DNA of 64,000 nt, from NCBI GenBank assembly GCA_964652775.1, contig CAZZAM010000001.1, positions 128,023 through 192,022 on the forward strand, given 5' to 3'. The stretch comes from an uncultured candidatus Brocadiaceae bacterium. Its GTDB lineage: Bacteria > Planctomycetota > UBA11346. This document shows, piece by piece, positions 15,227 to 40,434 of the stretch; the first letter of the stretch is position 1; the number at the start of each line of letters is the position of its first letter. A program made the position numbers and the translations under genes. Under the pieces are notes generated by a model. That model saw only the letters and a program-made list of their open reading frames with translations. It did not search any database and had not been told where the DNA came from.

Positions 15227-15384
15227 CCCGGCGATGGGATCACATGGAGAACCGGAGGAACGGAGCAGGCAGCGGCTTAGAGAATCAACGGCGTTCACCC
15301 AGGAGGTGAGTGCTTCTTTCGCCGCAAACCCAGTGCGACTCCGGTCCTCCGGTTCTCCATGTCGATCGAATGCTGCGTTTAGGG
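15227..15384 (+). repeat. ~158-nt hairpin repeat element, copy 1
   Basis: This copy aligns nearly base for base with 29909-30057 and 36140-36296. The 5' arm ACATGGAGAACCGGAGGAACGGAGC is complementary to the 3' arm GACTCCGGTCCTCCGGTTCTCCATGT. It sits in a convergent intergenic gap. Confidence 0.85.
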
Positions 15385-31286: not shown

Positions 31287-34200
31287 TTACGGCGATGTAA
31301 ACGCTTCGGTACGGCCCTGCGTCGTTGGACCCATCCTGGGATCGACAATCGGATTTCCGTGCCAACGGCTGAAAATAGAGTGAGCCCCGGTCATCGATCC
31401 ATCACCGGCCGGATCAACCGCGATAACCCGTTCAAGACTGGCCTCGGTCGCCAACTTGTCATTGCGACGATCCCAGAGTTCAGACCGGATGAACAGGCGC
31501 CACTTGTTGCACTGGCCGATATTCCAACGACCGGTTACCGAAAAATGTAGCTGCGGATCACCAACAGTGACAATGCCAGCGCCGGACACCGTTGTGGCAT
31601 CGACGATGCCGTCGCCATTGAGGTCAAGTGCCGGAGTGCCAAAGAGGCTCATACGAACGTCGTTCAAACGGTGCTCCAATTGACGCGACAGTGCCGCCCA
31701 GGTGGGCTTGTAATCAACATAGATCCCACTGGCGGCCGGATTTTCAATGGTTGGCCAGCCGAGGGACGTGTAGAGCTTGGTACCTGGATCGCGAACTCCC
31801 TTCACCGCGTAATTACGATATCCGTATTGACCAGGGTTACCGTCCTGGTTCAGAGCCATTCCACCACTCGACGTACAGCCTGCCGATCTGGTGGTACCAA
31901 TTTCAGTAGTGATGCCCGATAGCGCGTTCAACTGGTTCATCCGACCGAGTGGATACGGTGCCGAGTGGTCATTGGAGGGTGCCCCCAGATACACGGAATA
32001 ATCACTCGCGCTCATGGCTGTTGTACTCGCGTGGCTCGCTGCGTTGGTGTAGGCGATGGAAATACCCAAGTGGGCTAGGAACACCGTTTCCACGTCCTCA
32101 ATCTTGTCGTAACCCGTACTCAGTCCGGAAACTAATTTTCCATACTTGCGGTCAGACAAACAATCAACCAGGGTTTTCCAGAGCGCTGCAGTAATATCGT
32201 TCTGATATGACAACCGCTCATCCACCGTGTCGTTATTGTTACTCAGCAACGAATCACCCCCATTATCTGGCCGATTGCGGAAATAGTGGGTCTGGGAGTT
32301 ACTGTTCTGATAAAATTGACCAAAGACAAACACGTGGAACATATCTTCACCCGACCCTTGGCCAACGAATGGTGCCAATGGCGTGGTGTATTGCGTGGTC
32401 GCAGGAGCCGTAACGCTTGAATTCATCGCACGCTGGCACGAGGCAATGCCACCACCGTTAGCGTTTTGTAAATATGGAAAGCGAGCATAGCCAAACACCT
32501 CTGCAGGGGTAGCGACCACCTTAACGGCATGGCCAGGTGGGCTGGTGACGTACGCTACATAGGCAGTCGAATCGACACCGTTCAAGGTGAACACGCTGGT
32601 GCTGACCACCGTGACCGTATAGGGGCCACCATTCACCATAGTCATCCCCAGAACATCAGAAATATTTACCTGGTCCCCAGTAACCAATCCGTGAGATGCC
32701 GCTGTTACTGCGCACGGATTCGCCCTAGTAATTGCCGTAATATCCCGTCGCACTTCATCCACGGCGACCAATTCATCACGCACGGGATTCTTCCACACCA
32801 ATGGAGCATCGCCGGCGAAGGCATCGTTGCGGAAATAATACGTGCCCACCTCGGTACCATTCGCTGGCGGTCGCTTGTAGGTCGTGGTCAACACCACTGT
32901 ATTGCCTGCGCCGAGTGGAGGCAGCGCGCCGCCCTCAATGCCATCAGCGCCAGTTTTGGCCATACCGTCATCCCACACCGCAGCGAAAGCATCGCCCATC
33001 GTCGGACAGGCCTTGCGCGGGGGTATGGGTAACAAGTTACGCTGGTTCATCGAATAATTGAGGTGCGCCGAGCCGCTGCGCGACCGCGTGATGTAGTTAT
33101 CGATCTGACTATACCAATCCCCGGTCATGCCCGCGACCATGGCGACGCCCATTTCACGGGGCATCAATAGCATATTGACGTACCAGGGACAATCGATGTC
33201 CGCCAAACTGCCGTCGCCTTGGTTTCGTTTGGGCGACTTGGTTCGATCCAGATCAACTCCAAATGGGGTCGTACTGAAACAGCAGAGATCGACTGCGCGC
33301 GTTTGCGTACTGAGACTTTGCGTCAGGTCCGTAGATACCGAGCTCGACTCAAACCCCAATTTGGTGTGATACTGTGCCCAGCTCGCATTGGGTCCGGGTT
33401 GGAATTTCATCGGCGATGCCGGCGCTGACCACGGACTGCCGGGATCGGACGCCATGTCGTAGTTATAGAAATTACCTAACCAGCCCTGTCCCACAGCGAT
33501 ATTCATCATGCGGGTCAGCACGCCAGGAACGGCACTGCCCTTGTTGAGGCTCATGCTTACGCCATTGATCACAACCGTGGTTTTCACGTACGTTGGCGTG
33601 GCCCCCGACCAAGCATAAAATGCCGTGTTACCCTCTTGTCCGACGGGACCAGTGTACACCAAGCTACTGTTCTTTTTCACCCGGCCGGTTGATGAACCAT
33701 CGGTGACGCCCATGGCTCCGAACATGTTGCCGAGGGCCGTCGCATACTGCTGGGCCAGTGGGAAACTCGCACCGACCCAATCGGTATCGACTGGATCAAC
33801 CATGAAGGTCTGCTCGGCATTTGCCTGACTCAGACTGATCGTGGCGTTCGATCCTACAGCATACGACAAGGCCGCCGTTTTTCCCGAACCGAAGTAGGCC
33901 GCATCGCTCAGAAAAGCGACTGTTCCAGAGGCGATGGCAGCGGTTTCACCAGCACTGGGGGACGCAAACACTTCACCTGCGCCAGAGGGAACAATCTGAT
34001 TGCGTAGTCCATAGCGGAAGCGACCGCCGGTGGTCTTGGATAAAATATCCGGTCTGAAGTTGATGCTCATGTTCCCATCGAGGGGCAGCGCCATCACGGA
34101 AATCCGCGCCTCGTAGGCTGCTGATGCACGACTGGTCACCGGTAGGGGAATGAAGTTCTGATCATAATAAGCCATGGTGAACCATTTGGGCCAAGTCGCC

Positions 34201-35099
34201 GCGTTGGCGTTGTTGTACACCAGGCCGCGGAATCCATCGTAACTGTTCTGTGATTGCCAACTGGCGTTATCGCTGCCATTTTGGAACCAACCGGTGTTCA
34301 AACTGTTGCGCCACGGAGCGTACTGCATCGGCACCGCCAAAGTCCGCGCATCCATGCTGTCAACGATCGTCGGCCGCGTCGGATCACTCCAGGGAGTTGG
34401 GCTGCCCGCTCCTACGGCAATGAGGTTCCACCGCGTACTCGCCGGCGGGACCGTGGCGGTTGGACCGTTGGCAGCGTTACAGAGATAGTATGCCCCCGAG
34501 TAGAAAACATACTGGCCAGCGCTGTAACTAAGACTCGCCGACCACACCCTTGATGGGCCATACTGGTTGGCTGGCCATTGGCTGCTGGTCGTGCCCAGCG
34601 CATTGATGTCGGTGGTGCCGTCGGTCGCGCCAACCCGGCCTTCAAAGAAAAACTTCCAATTGAGACCCGTCCGCGCGGCAGGCACGACGGGGATCGGCCC
34701 ACCGTAATTATACATGACCTGACGCTCGGTTTGATTGGGAATATACACGTCCGGATAGCGCTGGGGTAGCTGCGCGGTGAACGCCGCTTGGTAGTCACTC
34801 ATCAGGATCTGCTGCGCGTACATCGCTCCAGCAATGGCTGTTTGCGCCGCAATTTGTCCAGCCGTTTGACGGGTTCCGCTCTCGCGCTGACTAGCCATCA
34901 AACCGACGAAGGTACCAGCCAACATCACGATCGTCCCCAGAATGAGCAGGACCATGAGTGCTACTGACCCGCGACGCGCAGTGTCGCCTGGGGGTGTGCA
35001 TGGCTGACGGAAACGCACGAACTGCAACGACACAGTCCGGACTTCTACATTCGCGATGGACAGACGCTGCTTGCTCTGAACTTGATAGCACATGATCAC
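31287..35099 (-). CDS. Giant GspK/PilX-like minor pseudopilin (1270 aa)
   Basis: The N-terminus 'ARRGSVALMVLLILGTIVMLAGTFVGL' is GspK-type, with no Glu at +5. The start (GTG 35099 or ATG 35093) abuts or overlaps the stop of the upstream pseudopilin gene. Confidence 0.7.
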   Translation of the reverse strand: MIMCYQVQSKQRLSIANVEVRTVSLQFVRFRQPCTPPGDTARRGSVALMVLLILGTIVMLAGTFVGLMASQRESGTRQTAGQIAAQTAIAGAMYAQQILMSDYQAAFTAQLPQRYPDVYIPNQTERQVMYNYGGPIPVVPAARTGLNWKFFFEGRVGATDGTTDINALGTTSSQWPANQYGPSRVWSASLSYSAGQYVFYSGAYYLCNAANGPTATVPPASTRWNLIAVGAGSPTPWSDPTRPTIVDSMDARTLAVPMQYAPWRNSLNTGWFQNGSDNASWQSQNSYDGFRGLVYNNANAATWPKWFTMAYYDQNFIPLPVTSRASAAYEARISVMALPLDGNMSINFRPDILSKTTGGRFRYGLRNQIVPSGAGEVFASPSAGETAAIASGTVAFLSDAAYFGSGKTAALSYAVGSNATISLSQANAEQTFMVDPVDTDWVGASFPLAQQYATALGNMFGAMGVTDGSSTGRVKKNSSLVYTGPVGQEGNTAFYAWSGATPTYVKTTVVINGVSMSLNKGSAVPGVLTRMMNIAVGQGWLGNFYNYDMASDPGSPWSAPASPMKFQPGPNASWAQYHTKLGFESSSVSTDLTQSLSTQTRAVDLCCFSTTPFGVDLDRTKSPKRNQGDGSLADIDCPWYVNMLLMPREMGVAMVAGMTGDWYSQIDNYITRSRSGSAHLNYSMNQRNLLPIPPRKACPTMGDAFAAVWDDGMAKTGADGIEGGALPPLGAGNTVVLTTTYKRPPANGTEVGTYYFRNDAFAGDAPLVWKNPVRDELVAVDEVRRDITAITRANPCAVTAASHGLVTGDQVNISDVLGMTMVNGGPYTVTVVSTSVFTLNGVDSTAYVAYVTSPPGHAVKVVATPAEVFGYARFPYLQNANGGGIASCQRAMNSSVTAPATTQYTTPLAPFVGQGSGEDMFHVFVFGQFYQNSNSQTHYFRNRPDNGGDSLLSNNNDTVDERLSYQNDITAALWKTLVDCLSDRKYGKLVSGLSTGYDKIEDVETVFLAHLGISIAYTNAASHASTTAMSASDYSVYLGAPSNDHSAPYPLGRMNQLNALSGITTEIGTTRSAGCTSSGGMALNQDGNPGQYGYRNYAVKGVRDPGTKLYTSLGWPTIENPAASGIYVDYKPTWAALSRQLEHRLNDVRMSLFGTPALDLNGDGIVDATTVSGAGIVTVGDPQLHFSVTGRWNIGQCNKWRLFIRSELWDRRNDKLATEASLERVIAVDPAGDGSMTGAHSIFSRWHGNPIVDPRMGPTTQGRTEAFTSP

Positions 35100-36109
35100 G
35101 GCGCCTTGGTGGTAAAGGTAAATGCCTGACGCAGACCGGTGGCCCGGTCCACCAGGGTCAAGGCAATCTGCAACTGCCGGGGACGCAGCAGATTCGACGC
35201 GGTGTCCGTCGTGGTATAACCCTCACCATCGATGCTCGTATTGTATCCGCCCCCAGCATCGGCCACGGTCACTCCCGCACGGGTGAGCATGCTGATCGAA
35301 CAGTCTTCGACGTTATCGACGAGAACCCGCGTTTGATCTGGAATGGGAACCGCATCCCAAATGCTGGTCAATGCGGTGTTAGACAACGATAAGTTGAGTT
35401 GATCTGCTGCGATCATCGAGTTAGGAACCTGGTTGCTGATGGGATTGGTGGTCCGCTCAGCGGTCATGCCCAAATAATTACGGGTTGTTCCATCGGCATC
35501 GACGCCGGTCAGAAACAGCATATCGTAGATCTTCACTTGTCTCGCCACGGCGGGGGTGGCGGACAGTGGATCGTAGAAGCTCATTATGCCATTGAGGAAT
35601 TCGCTATAGGTACGGACCGCACTGGGGCGCGCTCCGATAACCGGCCGGAACATCATACCAATGTCATTGATGGTGAACATGCGCAGATTCGGATACCAGA
35701 CATAGCCATACGCCGGGGGTGACGCCGCCCGGGTCAGGCTCCGCGAAGCGGCCTTCCACTCCCAGCGCACCCAACCGAAATCCACGTCCTTAGGAAAATT
35801 GTAAGAGGCCTGTTCCCAAAATTCGCGCGCTGAACGCATACCAGTGAACTGGACTATCGACTTAACGCCACCGCTGTAGGTGGTGGTCCCATTGCAGGCG
35901 ACATGCTGCAAGAGACAGGCCATGTCGCGTTCCCATTGCTCGGCGATGTCCCCGGCTTGGCGATGCAAACGAACGGTGGCTTCAGCGCGTTGGATCAGGC
36001 GCTTGCTGTGTTGATACGCCGCCATGGCCAATCCCATGACGGCCATACCCAAGGCCATGGCCACCATCATTTCGATCAGCGTGAAACCACGACGTGACAT
36101 CACCGTCAT
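35096..36109 (-). CDS. GspJ-like pseudopilin (about 337 aa)
   Basis: ORF 35096..36310, but residues 1-67 are a read-through of the repeat element. The start is probably Met68 or Met71 (36109/36100), giving MTVMSRRG|FTLIEMMVAMALGMAVMGLAMAAY, a prepilin cleavage/methylation motif. Confidence 0.75.
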   Translation of the reverse strand: MTVMSRRGFTLIEMMVAMALGMAVMGLAMAAYQHSKRLIQRAEATVRLHRQAGDIAEQWERDMACLLQHVACNGTTTYSGGVKSIVQFTGMRSAREFWEQASYNFPKDVDFGWVRWEWKAASRSLTRAASPPAYGYVWYPNLRMFTINDIGMMFRPVIGARPSAVRTYSEFLNGIMSFYDPLSATPAVARQVKIYDMLFLTGVDADGTTRNYLGMTAERTTNPISNQVPNSMIAADQLNLSLSNTALTSIWDAVPIPDQTRVLVDNVEDCSISMLTRAGVTVADAGGGYNTSIDGEGYTTTDTASNLLRPRQLQIALTLVDRATGLRQAFTFTTKAP

Positions 36110-36139
36110 GGATGCGGACGTTGCGACACGCCTGCTAGA

Positions 36140-36296
36140 TCCGGCGATGAGATCACATGGAGGAACGGAGGAACGGAGCAGGCATGGGCTTGGAGAATCA
36201 ACGGCATTCACCCAACATGTGATTGCTTTCTTCGCCGCGCATACCGTGCGACTCCGGTCCTCCGGTTCTCCATGTCGATCAGATGCTGCGTTTGGG
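36140..36296 (+). repeat. Hairpin repeat element, copy 3 (inside the pseudopilin operon)
   Basis: It aligns with the copies at 15227 and 29909. It occupies the 197-nt gap between the I-like and J-like pseudopilin genes, in the orientation opposite to transcription. Confidence 0.85.
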
Positions 36297-36306
36297 ATCA
36301 TGGAAC

Positions 36307-36753
36307 TCATCGGCTCACCACGCTGACGAGGCCAGCCAGTTTCTGCCCGCTTTCACCCCAGAACACATTCACTTGGACCAGATCGACACTGTGGCTCATC
36401 GCCTGGAGGATAGTCCGCTCGACATAGTAACCGTTGAGGAAACCGGTAACCGGCGAATCCGCCATGGTCTTCGCTGCATCAACGAGCGCGGGGTCAACCA
36501 GGGCCGTACGCGCGGTTGATTCGGCGGTGGCCATGCCAACGGCAATGTGCGACTCGCGCGTTCCGATGGTCGTCAGGGCCAGGACCGACAGCAAACCCAT
36601 GGACAGCAAGAGGAGCGCGATGATGACATCGATCAGGGTGAAGGCCCGACGAATAGGCGAACCACGACGAGCAATAGTCCGGACTTCCGGACTTCCGGAC
36701 TTCCGAACGACTTCGCCTCGGTTCACAGCACGATGCGTGTGATTGGTGCTCAT
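36307..36753 (-). CDS. GspI-like pseudopilin (148 aa)
   Basis: 'RRA|FTLIDVIIALLLLSMGLLSVLAL' prepilin-type N-terminus. The ATG at 36753 overlaps the upstream stop (ATGA). The size is typical of GspI. Confidence 0.75.
   Translation of the reverse strand: MSTNHTHRAVNRGEVVRKSGSPEVRTIARRGSPIRRAFTLIDVIIALLLLSMGLLSVLALTTIGTRESHIAVGMATAESTARTALVDPALVDAAKTMADSPVTGFLNGYYVERTILQAMSHSVDLVQVNVFWGESGQKLAGLVSVVSR
36678..36707. repeat. Tandem octamer array TCCGGAct x3 plus a degenerate unit
   Basis: TCCGGA occurs at 36678, 36686 and 36694, and TCCGAA at 36702. The array lies inside the 5' coding leader of the I-like pseudopilin. Confidence 0.9.
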
Positions 36754-38330
36754 GGCTTGGGCTTGATCCAGGGGTACGGGTCGTGTTGCTGCAGCATTTC
36801 GGGCTCAAGGGCACCAGTAACGCGGATCTTGTTCGCATCCCCATCAGTAACGGCGCAATACACCCAGCCATTGCCCCAGATCCGATCGGCGGTGGGAACA
36901 TTGACCTCGATGGCGTCAAGCCAGGCCTGAATACTCGCAAATGGTCGAATGCTGCGGACTGCCCCGGTTGGTTCGCTGACCACGATCCGGCGCATCGGCA
37001 GTAGCGACTTCAATGCGATGCTTGGGCTGGTAAAACTCGTGAGGTCGTCTGGTGCATCCTTGGCGACGGTGACCGATGGACCGCCAATCGCATCGCCCGC
37101 GAAGTAGATGATGCCATCGTCACGGCCGTGAAAGACATAGTTACTCGTCACAGCACCGTATTGCGGCTGGGCAATTTTCTTGGGCGCTGCGAGACCCGTG
37201 GCATCCATCCACGCCCAGGCCGAGTACAACGCCGCACGATTATAAAACGTCAGGGCCCGAGCCTGACCGTCACCAAGGAAGACGATGGCGAAATCCATCC
37301 AGTACCCATTGAGGACCGGACGCGGCGTACCGATTTGCGTCGCGTCACAACAGGGCCGCATCTCCTCTTGCGCACTGTTCCGCGCCGGAGTTTGCGCCGC
37401 GTTGCTGGGGGTGTACCAGCAGTCGCACAAGGCCGCATTGGTGCTGTTGGTCACCGGGATCGCTGTTTGCGCGTCATTCCATCTAAAAACACCTGGGCGA
37501 CCAGGGTTACCAGTTTGGAAAGCGTCGTGATTGGCGCCGCGATAGGTGCATTCGTAATCCAACCCCGAACCATAGATGGTGGTGTCGTAGCCAGCAAAGG
37601 CGCGCATCGTGTAGGCTGAACCCGAACCGGTGAGGTAGCCAAACCAGGGGCGGGGATAGGTGGTGCTGAGCGCCGCGATGCCGGTGCGGGTTGGCGTATC
37701 CTGGGACCACGCCGTAGCAGCAATGCCATACTGGGCGCGATCAACCGGAATCTGCGCCACCGCCGGGGTGTGGAGATTGTCCTCGACATCGCCCAGCGCC
37801 AAGAACCGCGTCCCCCTTGGCAAATAGAATGGTTCGCCGATTTGCGCGCGTTGGACGGTTGCAGCAAAGCGCTGAGCTGATCCGCGTGAACCCATCTTGG
37901 TGGACTCGGGAGCGCCGCTCATGCGTGGCAACAGGTCGTAGCCTTTCTCTGGTCCGATGATGGCGCACCAGTGCCGGCCAGGAAAGACTTTTGGATCCGA
38001 CTCATCCCAGTTGCGGAGGATGGCTCCCGAACCTTTGTTCTCGAGGTGAAACACCACGCAGTGGGGCTTGCCCGACGTGATGGCCAGATTGCGCGCCTTG
38101 AGCAGCATGCGTTCCACCCCATTCGCGGCCTGCTCAACCTGGATCTCAGCCTGGCCTTTGCTCAGCATCCCGCTCGACATCGTGATCCCTGCGAGGATTG
38201 AGATAATCCCGATGACGACCAGCAGTTCGATCAGCGTAAACGCACGGGTAATACGGCTCATCCTGAACGCAGCAGTCCGGAAGTCCGGAAGTCCGGAAGT
38301 CCGGACTGCGTCAATGAGGTTAATGATCAT
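36750..38330 (-). CDS. GspH/FimT-like pseudopilin (526 aa)
   Basis: 'ITRA|FTLIELLVVIGIISILAGI' is followed by 'AANGVERMLLKARNLAITSGKPHCVVF' (GspH-like). The start is either the ATG at 38330 (3 nt after the upstream stop) or the internal ATG at 38261. Confidence 0.75.
   Translation of the reverse strand: MIINLIDAVRTSGLPDFRTAAFRMSRITRAFTLIELLVVIGIISILAGITMSSGMLSKGQAEIQVEQAANGVERMLLKARNLAITSGKPHCVVFHLENKGSGAILRNWDESDPKVFPGRHWCAIIGPEKGYDLLPRMSGAPESTKMGSRGSAQRFAATVQRAQIGEPFYLPRGTRFLALGDVEDNLHTPAVAQIPVDRAQYGIAATAWSQDTPTRTGIAALSTTYPRPWFGYLTGSGSAYTMRAFAGYDTTIYGSGLDYECTYRGANHDAFQTGNPGRPGVFRWNDAQTAIPVTNSTNAALCDCWYTPSNAAQTPARNSAQEEMRPCCDATQIGTPRPVLNGYWMDFAIVFLGDGQARALTFYNRAALYSAWAWMDATGLAAPKKIAQPQYGAVTSNYVFHGRDDGIIYFAGDAIGGPSVTVAKDAPDDLTSFTSPSIALKSLLPMRRIVVSEPTGAVRSIRPFASIQAWLDAIEVNVPTADRIWGNGWVYCAVTDGDANKIRVTGALEPEMLQQHDPYPWIKPKP
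38276..38305. repeat. Tandem octamer array TCCGGAag x4
   Basis: TCCGGA occurs at 38276, 38284, 38292 and 38300. On the coding strand it is followed by CTGCTGCGTTCAGGATG, where the ATG is the internal start at 38261. Confidence 0.9.
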
Positions 38331-38333
38331 GAC

Positions 38334-40211
38334 TCAGTGTTTCCGCGTGACTTGAGGGCGTAGATTATCTGTGTTGGCCGCGTTCGTACGTACGGCATGA
38401 AACAAGCTGTCGCGGCCCGCGCTTAACAGTTCGAAATCCCGTTCTTCACCCATGGGCGCACACAAACGGATATCGTAAGCCGCGACGTTGGTATCATACG
38501 CGCCGTTACGCACGCGATCATAGTAGAGTTCACTGCCCCCCTGTTCACCATCGCCATTGTCATCCTTCCACGGTTCGACCAGTTTACTTCCGTCTTTGGA
38601 CACACAGTAGTACACCACGCCGCCGCGCTTGTGGGTTGGTACCGACTGAACCGCAACCCGACTGGGAATGGCGGTGCCGAATATCGGATAGGGATCGCCG
38701 CATTCCTCCATGTCGATGCCGTGCAATGCCCACACATGCGGACCACCGATCATGGGCGAAGGAGGTGACGTTGCCGAGGGGCAGTGGTAGTCGATGAGGG
38801 ATATATCCATGGCATCGGCCCGCACAGGCACTCCACGATCATTCACCCGATCAGTGACATAGCAGTAGCCGGGCGTGTAGAGCGGCGGAGCGTGATAACC
38901 GGTAATCATACCCGAGGTGTCGCCGGCCAGCGGAATGAGACTCGTCAAATCCGAACTCGGATCTGGGTGATAAAGTAACATGCAGCCCTTGCCATACATG
39001 CTCTGTCCGCGCTGATTGGGACTAGTGCCTGAGATAAACGCATTGCCGTTGAGCTGGGCAAGACGGCAATTGATCGTCTTCTTCGCCGGCAGACCTTCGT
39101 TGATATAGACCAGCGGCTGTCCGTAAGCATCCAGGATATCCACCTTCGTGTCGCCATCGAGATCCGACTTCAGGTAATTGTCCAACTGACCGCCAAGGTA
39201 GTCATCATGCCAGGGATCGCTCAAGGTCGCAACGTTGATCGTCTTGGAAGCACTAGTCTCACCCAACGAAACGCCTGATGCATCCGTACCGCTGTCGTAG
39301 GTGTAATTGCCGGCGGCAACACCATGACGCAAACCACGCAGATACGCATCTGCCGCATCGCGCGGCCGAGCATAACTGACATAAATGGGGAAGAGCTGGT
39401 TGATCCAACTCGCAAAGTAACCGAGGCCACCAGCAACGTGATAATCGCCGCTATATGGCGTCGGCTGCCGGGACATCAACATCGGGGCCACGCGGAAGTG
39501 ATCGAAAATCCTTTTCACTTCGCGTTCGCCCAGTGACACCGGTCCGGTGGCATCATAGTGCGCCCAGTCCTTTGCGGGCGCCGCGGTCACCGTCTGGGTC
39601 ATATTGGCCGCGTTAAACAGCGGTGGCAAATCCAGCCCAGCACACACCACATTCCCGTAGCTGCCGATGTGGTAGAAGCGATCGAGTTCGATGGTGCGCA
39701 TGGAATTCGCATTATTGAGCGCCAAGGTTTTGTCAGCTGCGACCATCGGGGTTCCCAAACTATAAAACAGGCCATTGCCAATCGCCCAGGTCGTCGGCGT
39801 ACTTGCCGGCGCCCACACCGTGTCGTTGTCCGGCGTCGGCAGTCCGGTTGCTGCGGCAACCTTGACCAGCCCATCATCAAAGCCGCCGCTTTCCGTCTGT
39901 ACTGGTGGCGCGGAATAAAAGCCCCTGGGATAGAAACCCATTTCGCTCCGGAACGTACGCAGGGCGGTATCAACCTTGTCCAACACCAATTGAGTCTGGG
40001 ATCGCTTGGCCGACTGGCGCACGCTCATCAGCCCGCCGTAGGTCATGGACGACAAAATCGCGATGATGCTGATGACCACCAACATCTCGATCAGCGAAAA
40101 CCCCCTCCGCCCAGACCCAGGACATGACGGCACACTTCCGAACCGGGAAACAAGCTCACATGAAGAAACGTATGGCATGGTACTGTGAATTGTGTCCATC
40201 CAGGCCATCAC
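38334..40211 (-). CDS. GspG-like pseudopilin with large insertions (625 aa)
   Basis: 'GRRG|FSLIEMLVVISIIAILSSM' is followed by 'AKRSQTQLVLDKVDTALRTFRSEMGFYP'. The later 'DGDTKVDILDAYGQPLVY' and C-terminal 'DFELLSAGRDS' mirror the GspG landmarks (DPWG.PY.Y / F.L.S.G.DG). Confidence 0.75.
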   Translation of the reverse strand: MMAWMDTIHSTMPYVSSCELVSRFGSVPSCPGSGRRGFSLIEMLVVISIIAILSSMTYGGLMSVRQSAKRSQTQLVLDKVDTALRTFRSEMGFYPRGFYSAPPVQTESGGFDDGLVKVAAATGLPTPDNDTVWAPASTPTTWAIGNGLFYSLGTPMVAADKTLALNNANSMRTIELDRFYHIGSYGNVVCAGLDLPPLFNAANMTQTVTAAPAKDWAHYDATGPVSLGEREVKRIFDHFRVAPMLMSRQPTPYSGDYHVAGGLGYFASWINQLFPIYVSYARPRDAADAYLRGLRHGVAAGNYTYDSGTDASGVSLGETSASKTINVATLSDPWHDDYLGGQLDNYLKSDLDGDTKVDILDAYGQPLVYINEGLPAKKTINCRLAQLNGNAFISGTSPNQRGQSMYGKGCMLLYHPDPSSDLTSLIPLAGDTSGMITGYHAPPLYTPGYCYVTDRVNDRGVPVRADAMDISLIDYHCPSATSPPSPMIGGPHVWALHGIDMEECGDPYPIFGTAIPSRVAVQSVPTHKRGGVVYYCVSKDGSKLVEPWKDDNGDGEQGGSELYYDRVRNGAYDTNVAAYDIRLCAPMGEERDFELLSAGRDSLFHAVRTNAANTDNLRPQVTRKH

Positions 40212-40297: not shown

Positions 40298-40434
40298 TCA
40301 CACGGAGGAACGGAGGCAACGGAGCAGACCGGGTTTGCCGGTCTGATGTCCATCACCCGTGGATGAATAGGTCACAATGTGTAACCCAATCGCTCGAACT
40401 TCGTTACCTCCGTTCCTCCGTGTGAACTGCTCCG
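40298..40434 (+). repeat. Variant hairpin repeat element (AACGGAGG-type arms)
   Basis: TCACACGGAGGAACGGAGGCAACG (40299-40322) pairs with CGTTACCTCCGTTCCTCCGTGTGA (40402-40425) at 23 of 24 positions. There is an inner hairpin CAGACCGG-gtttg-CCGGTCTG at 40325-40345. The element lies in the divergent region upstream of the pseudopilin operon. Confidence 0.75.

Follow-up and report, generated by a model that had tools for sequence, protein, structure and literature searches.

Rickettsia palindromic elements (RPE), like other intragenic MITEs, are small dispersed palindromic repeats that are inserted in frame into genes, adding a peptide while the host protein is kept (PMC10969869). The REP/BIME, ERIC and Correia repeats are abundant short palindromes found between the genes of operons, and form RNA hairpins that can affect mRNA processing and the expression of neighboring genes (PMC10969869). 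In Geobacter metallireducens, each of the class 1 putative global regulator binding sites is a tandem run of about four octanucleotides; the sites occur in dozens of dispersed copies, mostly as opposite-strand pairs at variable distance, are absent from the sister species and have no known function (PMC2700814). Here we analyze a tandem octamer array in the leader-coding part of a minor-pilin-like gene, referred to as the I-like gene, in an uncultured candidatus Brocadiaceae bacterium (Planctomycetota; assembly GCA_964652775.1). The gene lies on the minus strand of a 64,000-nucleotide stretch of contig CAZZAM010000001.1 (positions 128,023 to 192,022), and this whole stretch is called the window throughout. 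The array is one copy of a dispersed, otherwise non-coding hairpin repeat family, rather than a tract specific to this gene, and it probably resides in frame within a pilin leader that would be removed by cleavage.

An earlier note, made from the letters of the window, had described the array as a possible slipped-strand phase switch. Each of its sequence statements holds, and the array is confirmed as a real feature. On the plus strand, TCCGGA occurs at 36678, 36686 and 36694, followed by the degenerate TCCGAA at 36702. The coding strand of the array consists of CGGAAGTC x3.5, equivalent to (TCCGGACT)x3.5 on the plus strand, and a degenerate extra unit carries it on to 36709. Across the array the I-like codons read ...GTC GTT CGG AAG TCC GGA AGT CCG GAA GTC CGG ACT ATT..., and the peptide encoded by the array is RKSGSPEVR. 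The note had also stated that ATG 36753 and GTG 36726 are the only canonical in-frame starts ahead of the prepilin cleavage motif RRA|FTLID (the bar marks the predicted cut) and that both lie upstream of the array. This is correct, and a canonical start between the array and the motif was not found in the I-like frame. The array sits inside the sole open frame that joins a canonical start to the pilin domain. A 14-mer search with at most one mismatch gave seven matches in the window against 0.01 expected by chance, three of which fall at 38276-38305 in the orientation opposite to the I-gene array. What the earlier note overlooked is that the array belongs to a genome-wide repeat family.

A census of perfect arrays of at least 2.5 units across the genome (4.18 Mb in 78 contigs, 59% GC) revealed 163 arrays of period 8, 57 of period 7 and 25 of period 9. 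The period-8 arrays draw on few words, with AATGCTGG accounting for 98, AAGTCCGG for 37, AATGCTCG for 11 and AGAGGCGC for 6. The I-gene tract carries the word AAGTCCGG, whose 37 perfect arrays become 56 when arrays of at least two units are counted. Five contig ends lie within long AATGCTGG arrays (C13:1-55, C56:1-54, C67:10644-10697, C74:1-31 and C77:6492-6514), and because these arrays break the assembly, the array counts are lower bounds. The AAGTCCGG arrays are 20 to 44 nt long and those of the whole family range from 20 to 61 nt between loci, so that the I-gene array is of ordinary length.

The location of the arrays was determined with deliberately over-long gene models (longest open reading frame, ORF), which cover 89% of the genome. 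By these models 88 of the 163 arrays are intergenic and 64 fall wholly or partly within the 5′-most 200 nt of an ORF; eight are found deeper inside an ORF and three at a 3′ edge. All 64 of the 5′-edge arrays have an in-frame start just after the array. Divergent intergenic regions contain 31 elements compared with about 17 expected, while convergent regions contain 8 compared with about 17. Close pairs of arrays (at most 350 bp apart) are inverted and show one polarity in 13 of 13 AAGTCCGG pairs and 39 of 40 AATGCTGG pairs. The AAGTCCGG or AATGCTGG arm comes first in 52 of the 53 pairs within this distance, and AATGCTGG arms usually follow a G-rich tract, open with AATGCCA as a variant unit and close near TTCGA. 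This strict arm polarity, together with the recurrent arm ends, indicates that the elements have defined ends and handedness. The I-gene copy departs from the family habit in two ways: it is a solo arm with no remnant of a partner (best match 14/24, null mean 13.7), and it is located inside a reading frame instead of between genes.

The family as a whole shares with the Geobacter class 1 sites its tandem octamer words, many dispersed copies, opposite-strand pairing and restriction to a lineage. The words differ, however, being GTTGCTYN in Geobacter and AAGTCCGG or AATGCTGG here, and the hosts belong to different phyla. Also unlike the Geobacter sites, the I-gene copy is a self-folding solo arm that has a palindromic core and lies within a reading frame.

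Across related genomes the repeat family is lineage-specific and patchy. A search of 24 other genomes from the same taxonomic family revealed the AAGTCCGG array in only 4. It was not found in five of six congeners or in any of 16 genomes outside that family. Upstream of dut, no such element is present at the orthologous site in four Planctomycetota relatives. Longer AAGTCCGG tracts exist in other genera, reaching about 14 units at G021:C296:1835-1946 and about 9 units at G024:C79:557-628. The presence of the word in just one of six same-genus genomes, combined with long tracts in other genera, suggests horizontal spread or rapid turnover.

The leader of the I-like protein is unusually long. 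Counting from ATG 36753, 37 codons precede Phe+1, and 28 precede it from GTG 36726. The closest homologue, P0002, which is 48% identical over the whole mature part, has the six-residue leader MNGRHA|FTLIE, while the relatives L002 (36% identity), L004 (47%) and L007 (43%) carry MTRLRRA|, MKRNRTG| and MMNNHGRSA|, respectively; leaders of relatives other than P0002 comprise 7-16 residues. The genome's own credible prepilin genes, taken at their shortest possible leaders, reach 18 residues at most (median 7), making the I-like gene an outlier with the longest leader among them at either start. No homologue examined has a repeat within its leader, and the P0002 locus contains no arrays. The surroundings of the start codon are otherwise alike: the P0002 ATG overlaps the stop of an upstream prepilin gene (...gcgATGAac...) as ATG 36753 does, and the same ATGA overlap is found in the homologue L017. 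Downstream of the leader, the alignment of the I-like protein with P0002 covers the whole mature part, which is free of stops and frameshifts.

Because TCCGGA is palindromic, the array folds on itself. The minimum free energy (MFE) fold of the array and its flanks spans 121 nt at -46.8 kcal/mol (z = -2.2), and within it a predicted hairpin of 66 nt places the array at its core (Table 1). Excising these 66 nt leaves GTG-CCT-ATT-CGT-CGG-GCC|TTC, which encodes MPIRRA|FTLID, a six-residue leader from GTG 36726 with the length and shape of that of P0002. Outside the array itself, the flanking sequence of the I-gene copy is not repeated elsewhere in the genome. We consider it more probable than any alternative below that the leader-coding stretch of this minor-pilin gene received a hairpin of the family as an in-frame insertion, an event whose boundaries we infer from the modeled fold.

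This arrangement resembles that of an RPE: a dispersed hairpin lies within an ORF, its length is a multiple of 3, it is free of stops and the host protein is otherwise intact. The likeness is one of behavior, with no sequence relationship. RPE are about 150 bp long with a conserved peptide, compared with a 66-nt hairpin built on tandem octamers in the I-like gene. Here, unlike in RPE, the added peptide would reside in a cleaved leader, and in-frame residence is the exception in the genome.

In the proposed course of events, a copy of the hairpin repeat (~66 nt, 22 codons) would have entered the gene downstream of the start codon and ahead of the prepilin cleavage site, remaining in frame and stop-free. 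Translation from the original coupled ATG 36753 (or GTG 36726) would run through the repeat, giving a leader of 37 (or 28) residues in place of the usual 6-7. Prepilin peptidase would then cut the leader off, leaving the mature pilin unchanged, and the genome encodes such an enzyme (Peptidase_A24 at C9:20946-21608, 37 bits, above cut-off). As the leader is lost on maturation, the insertion would be tolerated and presumably neutral. The frame-shifting potential of the 8-base unit would be a by-product of the nature of the repeat, not an evolved switch.

Several points weigh against such an insertion. Its predicted boundaries are drawn from an RNA fold, and at the DNA level the outer stem of that fold is weak. 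Since the homologue is just 48% identical, the empty site is inferred and unobserved. No mobilizing enzyme, terminal repeat or target duplication of the family was identified, and the word insertion is for this reason a description and not a mechanism. In this the family differs from REP, ERIC and Correia repeats, which have a full-length consensus and, for REP and Correia, known or suspected mobilizing enzymes or terminal inverted repeats and target-site duplications; just the tandem word is conserved between most copies here. A class III leader of 37 residues is longer than any we know of, and its efficient cleavage is assumed, as position -1 is Ala and +5 is Asp.

Judging from its sequence context, the array most probably lies in translated sequence. 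Public gene calls place the I-like start at ATG 36753, which is also the most probable start here. It has CC at -2/-1, the typical context of starts in this genome. This context is unusual: among 217 unambiguous ATG starts from the whole genome, C occupies -1 in 68% and -2 in 57%. Shine-Dalgarno-like 4-mers occur in 34% of the genome's starts versus 13% of background, with a weak purine bump from -11 to -8. With Shine-Dalgarno use this weak, the lack of such a sequence at ATG 36753 is uninformative. By a rough estimate, the joint chance of an A preceding the stop, a correct frame and a run of 37 open codons is ~0.02, and the coupled open frame is thus unlikely to be accidental. The earlier note had held that the array must be translated; the lack of a later canonical start, the coupled ATG and the CC context make translation most probable.

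An untranslated array would instead mean that the gene uses a non-canonical downstream start, or that the insertion severed it from its start and left it silent or decaying. Every other array at the 5′ end of an ORF model is followed by an in-frame canonical start, and arrays of this kind are therefore normally features of the 5′ untranslated region. Starting at the in-frame ATT at 36673-36675 or 36652-36654 would give leaders of 11 or 4 residues, like those of relatives. A match to N_methyl below the Pfam cut-off and Asp in place of Glu at +5 also speak for this reading. ATT starts are very rare in bacteria, however, and neither ATT has the genome's CC at -2/-1. The intact mature part, 48% identical to its homologue over the full length, the open and in-frame 37-codon stretch from the coupled ATG, and a hairpin length that is a multiple of 3 also argue for translation, and we regard an untranslated array as unlikely. 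Two further candidates were rejected. TTG 36672-36674, which aligns with the ATG after a similar array at C5:43570, is in another frame that stops after 13 codons. The array at C3:83512, considered as a second one that must be translated, has an in-frame ATG directly after the element, and its translation is not required.

The frame arithmetic behind the proposed phase switch is sound, as a change of one or two units in either direction breaks the frame. With one unit fewer or two more, the cleavage site has no start codon ahead of it. With one more or two fewer, the pilin domain is joined to a frame whose only starts lie at least 50 codons upstream, inside the H gene. Provided that ATG 36753 or GTG 36726 is used, the tract resembles the contingency loci of Neisseria, Haemophilus and Campylobacter, where a tandem repeat whose unit length cannot be divided by 3 separates the start codon of a surface-organelle gene from its functional part. 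Phase variation classically affects components of pili. Slipped-strand addition or removal of 8 bp could be imagined to toggle the I-like minor pilin, possibly with polar effects downstream. The 3.5 units exceed the permissive in silico cut-off of PhasomeIt, set at 3 copies for 6-9-nt units (PMC5953494). Family arrays also vary in unit number between loci, with at least 14 units in another genome, which indicates that slippage or expansion occurs over time.

Contingency tracts, however, are locus-specific, usually much longer and polymorphic, whereas the I-gene tract has a word shared by 37 arrays (56 by the looser count) of a dispersed and mostly non-coding repeat. Most tracts of 7- and 9-nt units known to be phase-variable are far longer, those tabulated for Neisseria reaching 22-26 copies (PMC5953494), and the leaders of homologues are repeat-free. 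The unit number is also invariant across the assemblies. It is 3.5 in the metagenome-assembled genome (MAG) and in three separate assemblies (Hainich H51 R1, R2 and R3), although these four assemblies represent one groundwater well at 3-4x coverage and the MAG may derive from one of them, so that minor alleles would be invisible, a limit that weighs on the insertion reading as well. The DNA of all four is identical over both arrays flanking H, the sole protein difference being a V to G change elsewhere in the protein, and two other loci likewise show no difference between assemblies in their arrays of 44, 23 and 45 nt (up to 5.5 units). Apparent indels between the assemblies proved to be scaffolding Ns, not repeat variation. 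Two scans of Joint Genome Institute (JGI) metagenome contigs with a variable-length gap for the array gave no match. The comparison of unit number that the earlier note had suggested could thus be made within the population and not among close relatives: close orthologues were not found, the best I-like homologues being 36-47% identical in 40 related genomes and 48% identical anywhere. The on/off expression of the I-like subunit put forward in that note is unsupported for a dispersed repeat copy of ordinary length whose unit number does not vary between the assemblies. A phase switch is formally possible, but nothing shows on/off action, and we consider a working contingency locus quite improbable.

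The hairpin could also be a selected cis-acting element of the operon that affects H/I coupling, RNase III/E processing or stability, or the binding of a nucleoid or regulatory protein. A tandem-word hairpin occurs at every junction of the pilin operon (Table 1), the family is biased to gene 5′ ends, and its strict arm polarity suggests sequence-specific recognition. The arrays that flank H are perfectly complementary, with a predicted duplex of about -77 kcal/mol compared with -50 for two local hairpins. Correia elements are cut by RNase III and act as IHF sites (PMC10969869), and the Geobacter sites were proposed by Aklujkar et al. to bind IHF/HU (PMC2700814). The patchy, lineage-specific spread of the family and the absence of the element at orthologous sites in relatives argue against conserved regulation. 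Rfam returned no family at E ≤ 1 between 35000 and 41000; a consensus scan gave four terminator-like matches, all of them away from the arrays, and no promoter-like site. The (- +) pair around H is unique in the family and corresponds to two solo arms with no trace of a partner arm. A selected cis-acting role seems to us unlikely, about on a par with an untranslated array. A gene cassette bracketed by the two arrays was rejected, as this 1.57-kb (- +) pair is unique against the (+ -) close pairs and neither arm has a remnant partner.

In a combined version, which we judge very improbable, the arrays flanking H would pair in the mRNA and RNase III-like processing would uncouple H from I; alternatively or additionally, slippage would produce a true phase-variable minor pilin. 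On this view, 38274-38305 and 36678-36705 may form a duplex of ~28-35 bp in a polycistronic mRNA, and the putative H/I processing would be akin to that of rRNA intervening sequences and Correia elements.

The I-like gene is part of a run of prepilin-type genes on the minus strand of the window, in the order G, H, I, J, followed by a large K-position protein (Table 1). At the place of the N-terminal methylation motif, G/A|F-x-x-x-E, the I-like protein reads A|FTLID, so that +5 is Asp, and a hydrophobic helix comes next; homologues do have the motif. The I-like protein scores 15.9 bits against PF07963 (N_methyl), below the cut-off of 21.2, and 30.2 bits against TIGR02523 PilV, below the cut-off of 52.2 and over the N-terminal helix only. 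The profile search gave no match of the GspI model to the protein. The label GspI-like used in the earlier note is therefore too loose, and minor-pilin-like is, on these sequence matches, a safer name than GspI or PilV.

Table 1 Features of the pilin operon and of the I-gene array (window coordinates).
Feature	Position	Strand	Remarks
G-like gene	38334-40211	-	prepilin-type
H-like prepilin ORF	36750..38330	-	sits between two arrays; true start probably ATG 38261
I-like minor-pilin gene	36307..36753	-	148 aa, 37-residue leader
J-like gene	35096-36310	-	real start ~36109
Large K-position protein	31287-35099	-	1270 aa
Most probable I-like start ATG	36751..36753	-	overlaps TGA stop (36750-36752) of H-like gene = ATGA
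Alternative I-like start GTG	36724..36726	-	5′ foot of hairpin, upstream of array
Peptide from the I-like leader	MSTNHTHRAVNRGEVVRK...	-	I-like leader
Predicted hairpin, array at core; probable in-frame insertion	36659..36724	-	66 nt = 22 codons, MFE fold
Perfect octamer array	36678..36705	-	Tandem Repeats Finder (TRF): period 8, 3.5 copies, 100% matches
Predicted prepilin cleavage site	36640..36645	-	Ala(-1)|Phe(+1), motif RRA|FTLID; from translation and alignment to P0002
Second solo array of same word	38274..38305	-	(TCCGGACT)x4 on coding strand, own hairpin, fold z = -4.7
Junction hairpin upstream of G	~40300-40420		
Junction hairpin G/H	38274-38305		
Junction hairpin H/I	the I-gene array		
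Junction hairpin I/J	36159-36271		

The second solo array ends 12 nt (38262-38273) upstream of ATG 38261, which is internal to the longer H-like ORF; from this ATG the H-like N terminus reads MSRITRA|FTLIE. A 50-nt copy of the H-gene element, 98% identical including its flanks and with four units, is located at C47:19495-19544, directly upstream of an ATG, and a lipoprotein-like signal peptide (VIAIVLGLAAC) is found in the adjacent frame at that locus. Between the I stop and the J start (ATG ~36109), a gap of 197 nt contains a word-hairpin at 36140-36275, whose arrays occupy 36159-36178 and 36252-36271. Read on the coding strand, the arms are formed of GGAGNNCC-type (Shine-Dalgarno-like) and CTCCGTTC-type (anti-Shine-Dalgarno-like) octamers. 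These words are found again at 15339 and 29928, and also on contigs C25, C34, C5 and C17.

The K-position protein gives a significant match to PF16190, the ubiquitin-E1 FCCH domain (32 bits, above cut-off), and a weak CBM5/12 match, an odd mix of domains for a pilus-tip-like protein. In L017 (Logan ERR3697023), the closest relative, the gene that follows the I-like gene resembles the G-like protein of the window (RI[FY]DHFR and ARPRDAADAY in common), which indicates that the order of genes in the pilin cluster is permuted between the two organisms.

Elsewhere in the genome, a short arm of a AATGCTGG pair at C15:46173-46200 reads AATGCTGG AATGCTGG, compared with CATTCTGG TATTCTGG at L027:1805-1830 in assembly R2. 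These periodic substitutions recur in successive units at the same unit number and may reflect concerted change or an artefact of a low-coverage assembly. Five of the six genes for PF05635 (23S rRNA intervening-sequence protein) are flanked by tandem 7- or 8-mer arrays, some of them compound and up to 57 nt long (C6:67391-68034, C28:25067-25784, C17:1917-1944, C9:80446-80475 and C41:22781-22808), and the sixth (C8:47772-48077) has just a short 6-mer run upstream. These cassettes resemble the surroundings of H in being flanked by arrays, one of them by an array of the AATGCTGG family. Unlike them, the I-gene element is gene-free, and the arrays flanking H are opposite in polarity to the normal pairs of the family.

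For annotation, repeat-based predictors of phase variation would flag many false candidates in genomes rich in tandem-word hairpins such as this one. Approximately 64 arrays fall within over-extended 5′ ends of ORFs, and start calls beside such elements need care. Should switching prove true after all, a selfish repeat would have been co-opted as a contingency locus in an environmental, free-living groundwater bacterium, outside the host-associated pathogens. What is new at this locus is the in-frame residence of a family repeat in a cleavable pilin leader. It would represent an apparently clean natural case of a dispersed palindromic repeat tolerated in a coding region thanks to a cleaved leader, extending the RPE idea to signal sequences and to the Planctomycetota. 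Because this copy would have to be transcribed and translated through, it may also provide a handle on the role of the octamer hairpins.

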